Source: a virus
Strand: one strand, 5' to 3'
DNA: 64,000 bases
Virus record (IMG/VR): IMGVR_UViG_3300009128_001633
Coordinates: 31,857 to 95,856 of that record
The translations under genes were made by a program, and so were the position numbers. Shown here one piece after another: positions 31,654 to 55,595 of this stretch (within the stretch, counting starts at the first letter, position 1; every line of letters starts with the position of its first letter). The notes under the pieces were generated by a model. That model was not told where the DNA came from. It saw only the letters and a program-made list of their open reading frames with translations, and searched no databases.

Positions 31654-32004
31654 TTATTCCTGAGCTAAATCAAACTCACATGACCAATAATCATCGTTTT
31701 CATTTGGTTTATATACTATTGGAGCCATAAATGTCACATCATAAACTGTATTATCCATTGGATTAGTCCAATCAAAATTCCCAGCAAAGTTAATAGTTGT
31801 TTGCTCAAATGTTTTTAAAGTATTCTTGTCAGCAGTTGGCAATACTTCATATGCAACATGCCACTTCTGTGGGGTTCTTGTATACCTTGCTCTCTTCTGA
31901 ACATATCCAGCTTCAAAAGGAGACCTTATTACAGGATCACTAACAACAGTTTCTTTCCATGCTTTAACAGACGGTTTTTCAGTTAATGTTGGAAAAGTTG
32001 GCAT
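31654..32004 (-). CDS. Distal tail protein (gpM-like)
   Basis: SPFEAGYVQKR...FDWTNP; directly follows the tape measure. Confidence 0.8.
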   Translation of the reverse strand: MPTFPTLTEKPSVKAWKETVVSDPVIRSPFEAGYVQKRARYTRTPQKWHVAYEVLPTADKNTLKTFEQTTINFAGNFDWTNPMDNTVYDVTFMAPIVYKPNENDDYWSCEFDLAQE

Positions 32005-49056: not shown

Positions 49057-49686
49057 CTACTTCTTTTCTACTAAACGAAGACCCTTTTTCCTGAAAGACC
49101 TACCAATAGCTTCGTTTTCCATTTTATTTTGCTCTTCTTCTGTAAAAGAAACACCGTCGCCTATATTGGTTTCCTCATTATAGTTAGCACGCTGAGAAGT
49201 AGGAATGGCTTCAAGAATCTTAAGAACAGCTTCGCGAATTGTAAGTTCAAGATCAACACTCTTCTCTTCTTCGCCTTCACCAATTGTTTCAGTAAATTTT
49301 ATAATCCTATCCTCTTCCTGATCACTAAGCATAATCTCTTTGGCAATACTAACAACAGCAGGATGATGATGTTTATCAGTAAGAAGCTTATCACAAATCC
49401 GATCAATCTCAACAACACGAGCTCTTTCATCACTCGCAATCTGTTTACTATGAAGTGTTTTTGTCTTCTCTTCATATTTTTCAATTTTATCAGACATTTC
49501 CTTCATTTCTTTTTTCTGTTCAAGGATGAAATCTTGCAACTCTTTATTGTTATCATCTGAAGATTCATCAAGCTTTTTCTGAAGCTCATCATTCTTTTTC
49601 TCAAGCTCCTCGTTCATTGCTTGCAAATCTTCAAGAGTCACATCTTCATCCTTAACAGCAGGATCACGTTTAATATCTTTTTTCAT
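49057..49686 (-). CDS. Nested in-frame scaffolding protein
   Basis: Internal AAGGAGGTAAATAGT-ATG at 49686; acidic coiled coil, as with Mu gpZ inside gpI. Confidence 0.7.
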   Translation of the reverse strand: MKKDIKRDPAVKDEDVTLEDLQAMNEELEKKNDELQKKLDESSDDNNKELQDFILEQKKEMKEMSDKIEKYEEKTKTLHSKQIASDERARVVEIDRICDKLLTDKHHHPAVVSIAKEIMLSDQEEDRIIKFTETIGEGEEEKSVDLELTIREAVLKILEAIPTSQRANYNEETNIGDGVSFTEEEQNKMENEAIGRSFRKKGLRLVEKK

Positions 49687-50244
49687 ACTATTTACCTCCT
49701 TGGTTTGTAATCTATAAACAGAAACGTCGGAATCATCACTGTTTAATGAAAATTCTATTTTCTTCAGTTTAGAAATAAATGGTCTATTAGTTAAAGCTCC
49801 ACCCATTATGGCCGGACCAAATTCTTCACCACTTTCTGGATCCTCATAGTTATCACTGTATTCAATGCTAAAATATCCATAACGTTTCTTTTCAATGCTA
49901 TCTTTACCCTCTTCAGTAAGTTCAGTTGTCCCTATGAGTACGCCTTCTTCAATCTTAAGTTCTTTTAACCAACCACTTGCAGCTTCAGCTTTGTGATTCC
50001 AATCAAAACTAATCTCTCTACCAACTATCTCTTCGTTAAAATTAGTGACCATACTTTCAAGCATTTCTTCAGTAATTTCAAGATCACCATAAATCTTATG
50101 CTTGAAATCCCCTACCCTAAGCATTTCAATATTAACAAAATTTTCAGCTAATTCAGATACAATTTCCGAATCTAAAGAGACTATGCTGAAAAACTTGCCT
50201 TTATCAAAATGCACATCAGATAATTTCTTTCTTTTTTTGCCCAT
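49057..50244 (-). CDS. Mu gpI-like prohead protease/scaffold
   Basis: FDWNH..AASGW...YGYFSIEY...GGALTNRPF; C-terminal coiled coil. Confidence 0.9.
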   Translation of the reverse strand: MGKKRKKLSDVHFDKGKFFSIVSLDSEIVSELAENFVNIEMLRVGDFKHKIYGDLEITEEMLESMVTNFNEEIVGREISFDWNHKAEAASGWLKELKIEEGVLIGTTELTEEGKDSIEKKRYGYFSIEYSDNYEDPESGEEFGPAIMGGALTNRPFISKLKKIEFSLNSDDSDVSVYRLQTKEVNSMKKDIKRDPAVKDEDVTLEDLQAMNEELEKKNDELQKKLDESSDDNNKELQDFILEQKKEMKEMSDKIEKYEEKTKTLHSKQIASDERARVVEIDRICDKLLTDKHHHPAVVSIAKEIMLSDQEEDRIIKFTETIGEGEEEKSVDLELTIREAVLKILEAIPTSQRANYNEETNIGDGVSFTEEEQNKMENEAIGRSFRKKGLRLVEKK

Positions 50245-50253
50245 AGCATCTCC

Positions 50254-50892
50254 TTAAATTAATTTACCAGCAATCTCACAATTACTATTCTTCTTCTTAT
50301 CGCAATGTTTATTCAAAAGACGTTTAGCCTTAGAAGCTATTTTTGGTCTTTTTGGAGCTCCACGAGCTCCACGAGCAGCACTATACGCAGCCTTAAGACC
50401 TCCACAATTAACAGTACCATCAGCATTTTTATATGGAAACTTTTTCTCTTTTGGCATGAGAAAATGATTAGAAGGAACTTTCTTACGAGCAGTAGGAGCA
50501 GTCCATAATGAAATTGCACCAAACTCCTGCAAAATAACCCTATATTCAGTTTCTTCTAGATCAAACATACTTTGATCAGGCGGAGGATCATACCCACTAC
50601 TTGCCATTTTTAAATCATCCGGCAATGTATCATCCAAATCACTATCCCAATCATCATACCAATGACCACTCCCATTATCAATAAGAATTCTAGCAATGGA
50701 AGTATGTATCTCTTCTAATGACTTTTCTGAATAGCCTTTCAAACTCTCTTCACCAACAAGAAGCGAAACTGCTCTGCGAAGTTTGTAAAGATAATGAACA
50801 TCCCTATGGTCTTTACTTGTTGCAGAAGTAATAACTATAACACTGCCATCATCCTCTAACAACTTCTTTTTTGGTTCAAAGATTTTAAACAT
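50254..50892 (-). CDS. Head-module hypothetical protein
   Basis: Acidic N part; basic C domain RKKVPSNHFLMPKEKKFPY...GLKAA. Confidence 0.6.
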   Translation of the reverse strand: MFKIFEPKKKLLEDDGSVIVITSATSKDHRDVHYLYKLRRAVSLLVGEESLKGYSEKSLEEIHTSIARILIDNGSGHWYDDWDSDLDDTLPDDLKMASSGYDPPPDQSMFDLEETEYRVILQEFGAISLWTAPTARKKVPSNHFLMPKEKKFPYKNADGTVNCGGLKAAYSAARGARGAPKRPKIASKAKRLLNKHCDKKKNSNCEIAGKLI

Positions 50893-51266: not shown

Positions 51267-51512
51267 TCACTCTGAGCAAAAACCAAGACATTTACCATCA
51301 GCATCAAGATGCACATCCATTCCCTGACAAACATAAATGTCAAACTCATCGATTTTCTTATTCCATTTGCAATCATTGTTATCACAGGTCATGGAAACTT
51401 TACCTAATTTACAAAAACCACCTTTCATCCAATGTGCGCACATCTTAGCTTGACAAACATACTTGCCATCGACCTTTTCCCAAGTACATTCTGAACTATC
51501 ATCACTCATCAT
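51267..51512 (-). CDS. Cys-rich small protein
   Basis: Nine Cys in 81 aa; overlaps the portal stop. Confidence 0.6.
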   Translation of the reverse strand: MMSDDSSECTWEKVDGKYVCQAKMCAHWMKGGFCKLGKVSMTCDNNDCKWNKKIDEFDIYVCQGMDVHLDADGKCLGFCSE

Positions 51513-53742
51513 TGCCCTCCTCAGTAAGTTTTTTCAGCAAATACACTTGAATAAAATGTTTATGCTCACCATTCTCATCTTCTTCAACGTCACCTTCCGT
51601 ACTATAGGTATCCATTACAGTTAAATTGTTAACAACAAATGTATCCTTGAGTTCAGCAGAATCAAAATTAACCTCAACAGTATCTTCATCACCATAATAT
51701 TCTGTCTTTTCATACATAAAGACCAGAACAATACCACCTTCTTTAGTAACTCTACTTATTTCACCAAAACTTTTATCCATATTAGTAGAATGAAGTACAG
51801 AAAGTGAATACACTAGATCAAACTCCTCATCATCAAACTCTAAATTTTCTGCATCACCGACCATATACTCAACATTTTCATGGTTATTACTCTTTATAGC
51901 AGCATCTATGGCAACAGGAGTTATATCTATAGATATAACTTTATATCCACTTTCACCAAAATATTTACTATCTCTGCCATTACCACACCCTATTTCTAAT
52001 ATATTCCCTTTTGTTTTATTAACTTTTTCATTAGCTATTAAAACCTCTGCCAAATCAGAATGTTCATCAGAATCAGCCCAATGGACTTCACCAGACTTAT
52101 ATGCATCTAACCATCCTTTTTTATCTATATCTTTAAATTTAAGAATCTTATCATTCTTAACATTCCAAACCCTTTCTGATTTCTTAACAGGTTCACGCTT
52201 CACTTCTTTAGCAGCAGGTTTACGTTTTACTTCTTTTTCCTCCTTTTCTTTTTTTGGAGTTTCCTTAGGAGAGACATTTGGATCAATGCCAGCACCAGAA
52301 TTTTCATACTCTTCTTCTACTGGAATTATCGGAATACCCAAAACATCACTCATTTGCTTGATACTTGGCATCACTGTAGGTATAACTCCGGCCTTCATCC
52401 AAGTATTCATGTTCTGAATAATTGATACCATTATTTCCTTAAGAATACGCCTCCTATCATATTGTATTTTTTCAATTTTAACACGACATGGGACAATTTT
52501 CTTTGGATTAAAGTTAAATTGAACAATAGGTGGTATCAATTGAGCATTAACCGAATCAGCTAATTCGCTAGCCAAACCCTCTTCACTTAGCAAAAAAATC
52601 TCAGCATGAGAAGAAGCCATACTGAAGCTACCAGTTGAAAGATCTTGCGTCATAACTCTTTCTGGAGTTAACAAACCTCTTAATATTTGAGCATTTAAAT
52701 GATTAAGTGCATTTACAAACATTTCACCACGACGATCATCTGCCAAATACTCTATTGCCCACTGATTACCACCTTCCCTATCAGCTTCATACGGTAAAGT
52801 AACTGTACTATTTTCCAACAAATTTTGCGAGATTCTTAATGCTATTTCAGAATTATCATATTCAGTACCATCCAACGTAACACCACCACCTATTGGATGA
52901 GTAACAACAGTGGCAGGACTTCCCTTCCTCTCAAAATATCTCAACATAAACTGTGTTAAGACCTCTTTCCAATACCATGATTTATAGGCAGCTTTCAAAC
53001 GAGCATTACCAAAAAAGTTACCAAATTCGTCGCCAACTGTAAATAACAAACATTTCTCAGCATCTAATTTGATATTCTGACCACTTATATTCTGAACTAT
53101 TCCAATAAAATCATCCGTCTTACTATCAGTTCTAATTTTAATCGTAGCAGGATAATGTGCTTTGATCTTCTTCCATACTTCTGCCTTACCACTAAAATGG
53201 GTTTTCTTTCTACCATTTGGACTTTGAGAAGATATATCTATGTCTAACAATTCCCATATTATTTCATGACTCGCAAAACCAAAGTCAATTGAAGTCAACA
53301 TAGAAATTATTAGTTTTTTCCATACCCTTGTTAATGCTTCCTTAACAAACTCCCTTATATCAGGATCCTCACATTCTATAGTCCATCCCAATGAAACTAT
53401 TGGCATTTTAATCATTGCTAGACCAATTGCAATCTGGGGATCCGTCTTCATTTTAATATATGTATCAATTGGAATTGTATCTGGATTATAAACACCTATT
53501 GTTTCTGAACCAAAAGCAGCAGCAGTCAAAGGACTACCGTGTCTTGTTACATCCCTATGCATAGCAGTTTTCTTAAACTTAGCTTGTTGAGTGGATAAAT
53601 AAACCCTCATTTCATCACGAACATCTTTAGGCATACCTCTTTGTCTCATTAGAGATATTAACCTTCTACCACCCTCAGGATATGAATGTGCTCTGTAATT
53701 CAAAAAGTTAGGGTCAATTACTCTTGCTATGGTCTGTTTCAT
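51502..53742 (-). CDS. Portal protein (Mu gp29/DUF935-like) fused to C-terminal SAM-dependent methyltransferase
   Basis: MLTSIDFGFASHEIIW...GNFFG..LKAAY..WYWK..FERKGSP...GSFSMASSH...LIPPIVQFNF; then ILEIGCGNGRD...SIDI...GDAE..FDLVYSLSVLH..KEGG. Confidence 0.9.
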   Translation of the reverse strand: MKQTIARVIDPNFLNYRAHSYPEGGRRLISLMRQRGMPKDVRDEMRVYLSTQQAKFKKTAMHRDVTRHGSPLTAAAFGSETIGVYNPDTIPIDTYIKMKTDPQIAIGLAMIKMPIVSLGWTIECEDPDIREFVKEALTRVWKKLIISMLTSIDFGFASHEIIWELLDIDISSQSPNGRKKTHFSGKAEVWKKIKAHYPATIKIRTDSKTDDFIGIVQNISGQNIKLDAEKCLLFTVGDEFGNFFGNARLKAAYKSWYWKEVLTQFMLRYFERKGSPATVVTHPIGGGVTLDGTEYDNSEIALRISQNLLENSTVTLPYEADREGGNQWAIEYLADDRRGEMFVNALNHLNAQILRGLLTPERVMTQDLSTGSFSMASSHAEIFLLSEEGLASELADSVNAQLIPPIVQFNFNPKKIVPCRVKIEKIQYDRRRILKEIMVSIIQNMNTWMKAGVIPTVMPSIKQMSDVLGIPIIPVEEEYENSGAGIDPNVSPKETPKKEKEEKEVKRKPAAKEVKREPVKKSERVWNVKNDKILKFKDIDKKGWLDAYKSGEVHWADSDEHSDLAEVLIANEKVNKTKGNILEIGCGNGRDSKYFGESGYKVISIDITPVAIDAAIKSNNHENVEYMVGDAENLEFDDEEFDLVYSLSVLHSTNMDKSFGEISRVTKEGGIVLVFMYEKTEYYGDEDTVEVNFDSAELKDTFVVNNLTVMDTYSTEGDVEEDENGEHKHFIQVYLLKKLTEEGNDE

Positions 53743-55595
53743 CTTCCTAAATTCTCCCGAAATATTGGAACTTCAAACTGATCCATATGATTAGGAATAG
53801 CAGGAAACTTATTCCAATTAACACCATGTATATCTGGAAGTTTCTTAAACTCTCTTGGACGTGTTGCGGGAATTAATCTCTTTGAAATAATCGGAGTAGA
53901 AAGTGAAGATCCTATTAATCTAACTCTATGCATTTGTGCAAGCTTTCCAGCAGACGACGCTAATGCTAAAGCCCAAAACTTATCACCATGATGACGCCGT
54001 CTTTCACTTGGACTAACTTCATATTTTATAATAGCACCTTCCATTACCTTTCTTTTAATACTATGTATCTGCCTTATTAAACCCTTATCGTTTGGATAGG
54101 CCAATGTCTGATCTTCCATCCGCAGCTTTACATTGGTCGCCATTTCACCCTTATTAGCATTATTGAACTTCACATCCTCAATTCTACTATGAAATTTGTG
54201 TCTAAGATCCTCAGCAAGATTATCACCTTGCCCAGTTGAATCTATTTTCATTTTATTTATAGGCATTAAGCCAAATAACTTTTCAACAGTCTGAAATTGC
54301 TTCCTATATCTAGTTTTTCTAAGAGAAATTATTAATCTAACAACTTGTAAAAAATCCAATTCAGGAATTTCCTCTAAAACAAATATCTCAGATGAATCCT
54401 CCCTTCTACCTATATCGTATCCTGCAAATAACCTTTTGCTAACTATTCCCTTGCTAATAGCATGAGATAGTTCTTCCATTGTTTTATATATTTTAAAATT
54501 AAAGTCAGGATAAATAGGATTGGTATAAACAGGATTGTCACCGTATAAATCACCTTCCTCAACACTAGCAAATCCCATCAATGCTTCGAAAGTACATTGC
54601 TTAATTAAATCCATCGGATAGTATGAAACAGACTCATCTATGGCTTCTAACTCATATTCCTGTTGAAAATACTCTATCAACATGCTATTAAAAGCCTGTT
54701 TAATAGCTTCGTTTCCAAACTGCAATACTCTATCTTCTGTTTCTAACTCTAAAGCTACTTTATGGATTTCATCAAAATTTCTAACAGCATCTTCATTTAA
54801 AAAGTCAGGATTATTCCACCAATACACTCTGTGTCTTGAATAATTACTATAAGTCTCGATATCACTACCTATTTCATAATGTAAACCTGACTGTCCCAAT
54901 GGAGAAGAAGCCATACTTAGCTGACCAAATCCACGAGTTACTATTGGAACAGCAGCAATATAAACTTTCTCAGGCCATTGATAATGTGCTATCTCATCAA
55001 GAAATACATCAGTATTATAACCCTTACCACGAGGTTCTCGTTGAGGATGACTTATAAGGCGAGTGCGTGTTTTCCTGCCATCAGGGAGTTTTCCCTCCCA
55101 TTCAAGAGCAGTAACACGATCAACCACAAGTTTTTTCTTGTATTTATAAGGAACACTTTCATTAAGAGTTCTTGCATAAGTTATCTTTTCATTAGCTTCA
55201 TCCTGATTAAATGATACAAATATACCAGTATATATGTCAAGCAGTTGGCTCTTAGCATAACCTTCACAAGAAAATCCATAGGATTGTCCAATTTGACGAC
55301 TTTTATCACAGTGACGATATTTACTGCGATCACTCATGAAATCTCTCTGATATGAATAGAGGCAGGTTGGTTCAAGGTTGGTTTCCGTCAAGGTCTCTAT
55401 GTAACCAACCTCATTTGATATTTTATCAATGAAATTACTTCCAGCACGTTTTCTAGCTTTAATAACCTCCTTTTTATAATCCTCCAAGTTATCACGAGGA
55501 TCCTTTTTAGACAGAATCAGCGGACCCGTAACCGGAGTCCGCTTAACTTTACCCTTTAAAACAGGAGTTCTTTTAATAGCAGGAGTTCTTTTCAT
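53739..55595 (-). CDS. terL: Terminase large subunit (Mu gp28-like)
   Basis: KSRQIGQS Walker A, VFLDEIAH Walker B, FQQEYE, GYDIGR nuclease motif, HGDKFWALALA. Confidence 0.93.
   Translation of the reverse strand: MKRTPAIKRTPVLKGKVKRTPVTGPLILSKKDPRDNLEDYKKEVIKARKRAGSNFIDKISNEVGYIETLTETNLEPTCLYSYQRDFMSDRSKYRHCDKSRQIGQSYGFSCEGYAKSQLLDIYTGIFVSFNQDEANEKITYARTLNESVPYKYKKKLVVDRVTALEWEGKLPDGRKTRTRLISHPQREPRGKGYNTDVFLDEIAHYQWPEKVYIAAVPIVTRGFGQLSMASSPLGQSGLHYEIGSDIETYSNYSRHRVYWWNNPDFLNEDAVRNFDEIHKVALELETEDRVLQFGNEAIKQAFNSMLIEYFQQEYELEAIDESVSYYPMDLIKQCTFEALMGFASVEEGDLYGDNPVYTNPIYPDFNFKIYKTMEELSHAISKGIVSKRLFAGYDIGRREDSSEIFVLEEIPELDFLQVVRLIISLRKTRYRKQFQTVEKLFGLMPINKMKIDSTGQGDNLAEDLRHKFHSRIEDVKFNNANKGEMATNVKLRMEDQTLAYPNDKGLIRQIHSIKRKVMEGAIIKYEVSPSERRRHHGDKFWALALASSAGKLAQMHRVRLIGSSLSTPIISKRLIPATRPREFKKLPDIHGVNWNKFPAIPNHMDQFEVPIFRENLGR

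Follow-up and report, generated by a model that had tools for sequence, protein, structure and literature searches.

We analyzed a 64,000-nt window, positions 31,857 to 95,856 of the IMG/VR viral contig IMGVR_UViG_3300009128_001633 (95.9 kb, estimated to be 69% complete), a record contained in runs that are marine metagenomes. The head module of this virus encodes a protein in which a phage portal is continued, in a single open reading frame (ORF), by a class I S-adenosylmethionine (SAM)-dependent methyltransferase (MTase), and the fusion gene is followed by a small gene for a Cys-rich protein, hereafter the partner (table 1). The two genes are treated below as a cassette.

Table 1. Features of the portal-MTase locus, in coordinates of the window.
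Feature	Position	Strand	Description and basis
Portal-methyltransferase fusion gene, P0001	51502..53742	-	single uninterrupted ORF, 746 aa
Mu-type portal domain, residues 92-489	52276..53469	-	Pfam PF06074 4.6e-33; phrog_113 4.8e-41
K/E/P-rich low-complexity linker, residues ~481-540, ends VKRKPA...VKREPVKK	52123..52302	-	alignment
Class I SAM-dependent MTase domain, TehB/TPMT-like, residues ~541-740	51523..52122	-	Pfam, model, charge
Cys-rich partner protein, 81 aa	51267..51512	-	7 invariant Cys, near-invariant His
Large terminase subunit (TerL), directly upstream, stop/start overlaps portal gene	53739..55595	-	weak Terminase_6C match
Mu-like prohead protease/scaffold protein	49057..50244	-	Pfam Mu-like_Pro 1.4e-13

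The N-terminal part of the fusion is a portal of the Mu type: the Pfam profile Portal_Mu (PF06074) covers residues 93-427 with 115.4 bits for a cut-off of 23.9, and PHROGs assigns residues 92-489 to the portal family phrog_113. PHROGs also reports a methyltransferase on residues 576-685, where the Pfam profile Methyltransf_11 matches residues 582-673 (3.9e-22; 79 bits for a cut-off of 21.2) and is overlapped by weaker TehB and TPMT matches. The linker, of about 60 residues, has a net charge of +5.8, and the start of the MTase model is disordered. No MuF domain was detected by Pfam in the portal-MTase protein. Translation and both profile libraries thus bear out the single ORF made of a Mu-type portal, a K/E/P-rich linker and an MTase that had been described in a first-pass annotation of this DNA, and each of the motifs quoted there (W..AY...HW, ILEIGCGNGRD, SIDI, GDAE, FDLVYSLSVLH, and KEGG) is found in the translation; the interval given for the fusion, 51502-52300, does cover the linker and the MTase part, but the whole gene extends to 53742.

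The window comes from one metagenomic contig of low coverage (depth about 4-5), in which two genes might have been joined artificially by the assembly or by a frameshift; the comparative data refute this, and we regard its probability as negligible. Contigs assembled from the runs of two marine samples cross the junction without any indel: a 982-nt contig of sample X1, which may be the source sample of the window, spans positions 51393-52374 with one substitution, and a contig of the second sample, X2, covers positions 52140-52312. Moreover, a search of 5.8 billion proteins returned four close homologs from other assemblies (P0002-P0005; 719-760 aa, 59-71% identity), all of them full-length fusions in which the ORF is continuous and the linker, variable in length and sequence, always remains in frame, and fusions of the same type are found at dozens of other loci. 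The same search identified 23 related portals without MTase (P0006-P0028; 504-557 aa, 52-67% identical to the portal domain). In the alignment, most of these unfused portals stop a few residues past a [VI]KRxPVKK-like motif, whereas the fused ones keep the motif and run into the MTase. No RNA dataset is listed as containing this stretch, and the one metatranscriptome compared with it gave no match.

The MTase domain looks functional, judging from its SAM motifs and its predicted fold. Across 27 fused members and 30 domain-length relatives, little or no variation is seen in motif I (LEIGCGNGRDS), the acidic residue of IDI, the DAE motif and E..RVL, nor in three family-specific features, the aromatic lid W..Y..G.PHW, LSVLHST and a C-terminal DE.GE.H hairpin; the LEIGCGNG of motif I and the Asp of IDI do not vary at all. 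The AlphaFold model computed from the family alignment has high confidence (predicted local distance difference test [pLDDT] 88.9; predicted template modeling score [pTM] 0.86) and shows a class I fold, so that motif I, the acidic residue and the fold all place the domain among class I SAM MTases. In structural comparisons (Foldseek and VIA-align), compact small-molecule, lipid, and natural-product MTases are tied at Z 20-23, with TehB having the highest sequence identity among the structural matches (24-27%); given that so many MTases are tied, the substrate cannot be transferred from any of them. TehB and the thiopurine/thiol MTases (PDB 2xva, 4dq0, 2i6g, 9h0d) share with the domain the class I fold and an N-terminal aromatic lid W..Y....HW. 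TehB is also the best NCBIfam match, but the scores (57.1 bits vs 218 for NF008405 and 41.1 vs 219.5 for TIGR00477) remain far below the equivalog cut-offs, and the domain therefore belongs to no curated family. The Pfam TehB profile scores 37.2 bits, which is above its loose cut-off of 20.4 but beneath stronger generic models, and the TPMT match is limited to the N-terminal 93 of 218 profile positions. Likewise, the best PADLOC match, mad2, a predicted methylase of the MADS defence system (10.1101/2023.03.30.534895), covers the generic SAM-binding core only, with a significance similar to that of the generic Pfam MTase models.

Several properties argue against DNA or RNA as the substrate. The domain is strongly acidic (net charge -28.6 in the window copy; median pI [isoelectric point] of 5.1 over 43 family members), it has no recognition module, and the MTase part contains neither form of the motif IV of DNA methylases, that is, (D/N/S)PP(Y/F/W) or PC plus ENV. 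The absence of DPPY/NPPY and PC motifs noted in the first-pass annotation is thereby upheld (residues 517-746 include no PPY and no PC dipeptide), as is its description of the domain as intact and non-canonical for a DNA methylase. In the consensus of the domain alignment (A3), the motif IV position reads LSVLHST, in which the L and the H are invariant in the 27 fused members. We also considered a "SAM-burning" enzyme that would deplete SAM, and rejected it on our own estimate of about 12 enzymes for some 1e5 SAM molecules per cell.

The partner gene is tightly associated with the MTase. In the window, the two genes share 11 nt, the partner starting with an ATG inside the last codons of the MTase ORF, behind a GAGGAGG Shine-Dalgarno sequence. 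The encoded protein has homologs at 50-76% identity and belongs to a family of about 75 aa, with seven invariant Cys, a near-invariant His and a nearly invariant MDVHLDADGKCLG end. The gene directly following the MTase ORF encodes a homolog in 37 of the 41 loci found via the MTase; in that survey, the pattern fails at two contig ends, for an atypical N-terminal MTase and for three MTases that are more distant. In the reverse test, an MTase domain was present upstream and on the same strand in 51 of the 53 loci (50 viral contigs and 3 contigs from metagenome-assembled genomes [MAGs]) found via the Cys-rich protein alone, mostly within 15 nt and at about 250 nt at most; the two exceptions are a contig end and L089, where a MuF protein has no MTase at that position. 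The divergences of the two proteins correlate over 43 unique cassette pairs (Mantel r 0.45, with none of 999 permutations as high), and the Cys-rich protein is the more conserved member in 91% of the divergent pairs. On the evidence of these sequences, what we observe is a mobile two-gene cassette, not a one-off fusion; the first-pass annotation had noted neither the partner gene nor the recurrence of the arrangement in the family. One locus, L010, was examined as a possible natural fusion of the MTase with the Cys-rich protein and was rejected, its translation showing a stop between the two. In L089 (2296-7154), the gene after the MuF protein and the Cys-rich protein encodes a 630-aa protein with a ChaB domain, and this locus may represent a remnant of the cassette or a different partner enzyme.

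The partner family comprises at least 171 clusters at 90% identity, none of which has a functional name. DUF1540 (PF07561) gives a sub-threshold match (19.1 bits for a cut-off of 22.1) and 11 of 23 members match it weakly; the label of the partner's cluster in the ESM Atlas is "DUF1540 domain-containing protein." The sequence resembles two C-x4-C-x8-13-C repeats, which makes two metal sites likely. Neither the model (pLDDT 70) nor the profile of the partner matches a solved structure. In particular, no relationship to Trm112-type zinc-binding MTase activators was detected by Pfam or PDB sequence matches or by fold, the latter with a partner model of pLDDT 70 only. The second half of the partner aligns with the cluster-binding loops of a Rieske iron-sulfur protein (PDB 5cxm) at a non-significant E-value of 0.08 and without conservation of the His ligands, a hint of a metal-knuckle fold and nothing more.

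The first-pass annotation had proposed a search for other portal-MTase fusions, and such fusions turned out to be numerous and diverse. A phmmer search with the domain against 1.84 billion representatives retrieved 13 matches below 1e-30 and about 45 full-domain matches below 1e-22, in proteins of 185-3763 aa, and the MTase family forms at least dozens of clusters at 50% identity. We gathered 93 distinct members from proteins and viral loci. Nearly all of them have the domain at the very end of the protein, with 0-6 residues left to the C-terminus (L042, P0080, and L128 are the exceptions), and the carriers that precede it fall into at least 18 groups unlinked by BLAST. The MTase is found at the C-terminus of at least six portal families. 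HK97-type portals (PF04860; phrog_12/2662) account for 25 members, one of which also contains an intein, and Mu-type portals (phrog_113) for 10, window included; the others are portals of phrog_3753 (4 members), phrog_146 (3) and phrog_10963 (2), Phage_portal_3 (PF06381) and a P23-45-type barrel. Further carriers are MuF proteins (L088 and P0050), a portal-MuF-MTase triple fusion (L010), an ADP-ribosyltransferase (ART)-type minor head protein (P0029), a prohead protease, and giant polyvalent proteins with an LPD38 domain (P0054, 2671 aa). In a FastTree phylogeny of the MTase domain, the carriers are interleaved, with about 29 carrier changes required and Mu-type portals at two or more well-supported places, which indicates that fusion or un-fusion occurred many times. 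About three quarters of the loci are fused. The stand-alone MTases have 20-70 extra N-terminal residues and are encoded directly behind the portal gene in most loci checked. The identified carriers all reside inside the prohead, from which it would follow that the enzyme is meant for the capsid interior; this is the strongest argument, although an indirect one, and the fusion to so many capsid-interior carriers strengthens the idea that the MTase domain is located inside the head.

Some members of the family show further peculiarities. The intein-containing protein, a 1227-aa HK97-type portal-MTase (L008:2116-5796; also L009), carries, close to where its portal domain begins, an intein that includes a LAGLIDADG homing endonuclease, as recognized by the Pfam profiles Intein_splicing, LAGLIDADG_3, and Hint_2. 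A KGG.GSG..GHR(T/I) motif is present at the N-termini of the stand-alone MTase L012 (5803-5970) and of P0042 and in the N-terminal region of the ART-MTase P0029, and four other stand-alone MTases (L026, L033, L040, and P0062) share another conserved leader of about 55 aa (…IPANP…YF..LD.AFPY). Both kinds of leader may serve to target the capsid or to bind the portal. A search of 185,579 species genomes matched the cassette only in the contigs L087, L088, and L089, which had been binned into the MAG of an uncultured archaeon and into two MAGs of Dehalococcoidia; these contigs probably derive from phages or prophages, and the bins could serve as a pointer to the hosts.

The cassette is also accessory, as far as can be judged from comparing related loci. 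The sister loci L002 and L003, whose portals are 62% identical, have neither cassette gene beside the portal, and in a 114.6-kb sister record (82% complete) both genes are absent from the whole record. In the portal tree, the fused P0001-P0004 cluster with one plain portal (P0006) and the fused P0005 is found elsewhere, whereas the MTase domains of P0001-P0005 form one clade. This pattern, interleaved portals but a single MTase clade, fits one acquisition followed by losses or recombination. No phage record had a near-DNA match to the window, and tblastn with the MTase domain (E≤1e-10) and with the Cys-rich protein (E≤1e-3) retrieved no match from 50,697 GenBank phage records (INPHARED).

Published systems offer partial parallels. 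MuF polymorphic toxins of temperate phages combine a C-terminal enzymatic domain with a downstream small ORF (<150 aa) into a swappable unit (Jamet et al. 2017, PMC5576092). In the cassette, likewise, the carrier is a head-interior protein encoded among the packaging genes, the enzyme forms the very C-terminus of that protein, and directly downstream comes a small ORF, which at 81 aa falls below the 150-aa limit, overlaps the MTase stop and is paired with the MTase as constantly as described above; furthermore, its relatives L088, L010, and P0050 are mounted on true MuF domains. It differs from these toxins in that the carrier in the window is the portal itself and the cargo a class I MTase (the word "methyltransferase" is absent from the main text of PMC5576092), in that the small protein is a highly conserved Cys7His protein instead of a variable immunity protein, and in its occurrence in uncultured marine or environmental phages and not in Firmicutes prophages. 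Iyer et al. 2017 (PMC5512222) propose that PBECR RNase and 2H phosphoesterase domains, when joined to MuF or portal proteins, are packaged and injected effectors, and a single effector domain on a portal or MuF, as in the cassette, is the simplest of the architectures described; the LPD38 domain of P0054 is another point in common with the phage polyvalent proteins treated there. The passages of that study matched here deal with N6-adenine DNA methylases that have SNF2 helicases or ParB as partners, unlike the cassette MTase, which is compact, acidic, TehB/TPMT-like and accompanied by a nearly obligatory small partner gene. P1 DarB and T4 Alt, according to PMC5512222, are packaged in the head and available upon DNA entry. 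The cassette enzyme, as proposed below, would also be loaded into the head, but DarB (a DNA methylase-helicase) and Alt (an ADP-ribosyltransferase) are proteins of their own, which reach the head by other means. A search of the literature for portal-methyltransferase fusions and DUF1540 yielded no description of the cassette arrangement. Effector domains on portal or MuF proteins have thus been published already, and the cargo family, the Cys-rich partner and the breadth of carriers were not found in the literature searched.

In solved portals (SPP1, P22, T4, and HK97-type), the C-terminal end forms a crown that faces the capsid interior. A C-terminal extension of the portal would hence point into the capsid, which makes up to twelve MTase domains per virion a reasonable inference. 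The reading that we consider most likely, and favor with a little more than even confidence, is that of an accessory enzyme which is loaded into the capsid and acts, at genome delivery or shortly afterwards, on a target other than a nucleic acid. The C-terminal tail of the Mu-type portal bears a complete class I SAM MTase which, together with the translationally coupled Cys7His protein (about 75-81 aa, probably metal-binding), constitutes a mobile accessory two-gene cassette that phages have repeatedly docked onto proteins of the head interior, be they portals, MuF, the ART minor head protein, the protease or polyvalent proteins. By way of the portal, each virion would receive up to twelve copies of a pre-made enzyme, ready when the genome is delivered, and the enzyme would be either released from its tether or active at the portal. 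It would methylate a protein or a small molecule, and the partner might act as an inhibitor or immunity factor in the producing cell, as an activating subunit, or as a methyl acceptor. A more specific version, which we put forward tentatively and hold to be possible but not probable, is that the MTase and the Cys7His protein form a hitherto unrecognized, widespread virion-delivered system of uncultured phages, in which the enzyme, pre-loaded by its fusion to head-interior proteins, methylates a specific host protein or small molecule at infection, for example, a component of defence or signaling. The partner of such a system would either inhibit the enzyme stoichiometrically in the producing cell or be a subunit essential for its activation or specificity; in a sharper variant, its metal-bound thiolates would themselves be the methyl acceptor, in the manner of an Ada-like switch carried in the virion.

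Several considerations weigh against a capsid-loaded enzyme acting at delivery. The portal itself is not ejected, so that delivery would need proteolytic release, and twelve copies of a small-molecule-type MTase are few for shifting the pool of a metabolite. Were the partner an immunity protein, its conservation, which exceeds that of the enzyme, would be unusual. The cassette normally lies right behind the portal gene, and some fusions could therefore come from the loss of a stop codon. Finally, the GenBank phage records searched, and thus cultured phages, have provided no example of the cassette.

Other explanations account for part of these observations. The MTase might act within the procapsid or virion on phage components and never be delivered, its candidate substrates being the Cys-rich protein, scaffold or capsid proteins, the basic tails of head proteins, or a moiety on the phage DNA passing the portal. 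A tether to the portal, MuF or protease does put the enzyme inside the prohead, a TPMT/TehB-like enzyme beside a thiol-rich protein suggests S-methylation, and basic tails would attract a strongly acidic domain. Yet we judge this explanation unlikely, for the cassette is dispensable in close relatives and mounted on unrelated virion types, unlike what would be expected of a morphogenetic step, and a compact acidic domain that lacks a recognition module and DPPY/PC motifs is a poor fit to a substrate on DNA. The KRxP tails of head proteins, suggested as substrates in the first-pass annotation, have lost ground in particular: unfused sister portals without MTase keep a basic KRxP-like tail (which is only loosely present in L002 and L003), and the cassette is also found on portal families unrelated to that of the window.

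Alternatively, the fusion itself may be incidental, with a cytoplasmic accessory enzyme pair (for metabolite or glycan methylation, for example), usually inserted just behind the portal gene, being repeatedly joined to the portal by stop-codon loss and tolerated as a read-through product of no functional meaning. Stand-alone MTase genes that abut or overlap the stop of the portal gene would provide the starting point, and the closest structures are those of small-molecule and natural-product MTases. The prevalence of fused loci and the extension of the carriers beyond portals to MuF, ART, protease and polyvalent proteins are difficult to reconcile with such an accident, which we consider rather improbable. 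Longer, fused forms of the Cys-rich protein were searched for and none was found, even though its gene also overlaps or abuts that of the MTase; this is weak evidence, but the asymmetry between an MTase that is fused and an adjoining Cys-rich protein that never is argues for selection over accident. A role like that of P1 DarB, in which a DNA methyltransferase travels in the head and shields the entering genome against restriction, appears very unlikely to us. Head-packaged DNA methylases are known (DarB is discussed in PMC5512222) and the best PADLOC match is a predicted methylase, but, apart from the motif IV and charge arguments given above, the domain, of about 200 aa, includes no target-recognition domain, the mad2 match is confined to the generic core, and there is no DNA MTase among the top structural matches.

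If the preferred reading, a capsid-loaded enzyme acting at delivery, is correct, the cassette would add a non-DNA methyltransferase to the enzymes carried in capsids. Such enzymes act before phage gene expression and are prime candidates for host takeover and counter-defence; to our knowledge, few have been recognized (Alt, DarB, the N4 vRNAP, and the proposed MuF toxins). The cassette is abundant in metagenomes and absent from the GenBank phage records searched. The portal C-terminus would moreover provide a natural rule for loading foreign proteins into capsids, useful in phage engineering, and the partner defines a new and very conserved Cys-rich family without a known fold, which is directly testable.

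The neighborhood of the portal gene is that of a head module. The gene is flanked by TerL and the 81-aa ORF, after which come two small ORFs and then the protease/scaffold gene, whose product is a candidate processing enzyme for head-interior proteins; the order from terminase to portal is also found in the related loci L001 and L002. A basic motif, KRxP(V/A), recurs in this module. It is present in three copies at the N-terminus of TerL (55530-55595), which are kept in the TerL of L001 and L002, it ends the portal tail (52186-52230), the MTase being inserted directly behind this copy, and it occurs near residue 193 of the protease/scaffold protein (49657-49674) in the window and in L001 but is absent there from L002. 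Docking or cleavage could be its function. The module also encodes, on the minus strand, a 212-aa protein (50254-50892) without any family match, which has equivalents in L001 (10894-11547) and L002 (9955-10668) and whose K(K/R)(F/Y)P(Y/F)KN motif is kept in all three phages.

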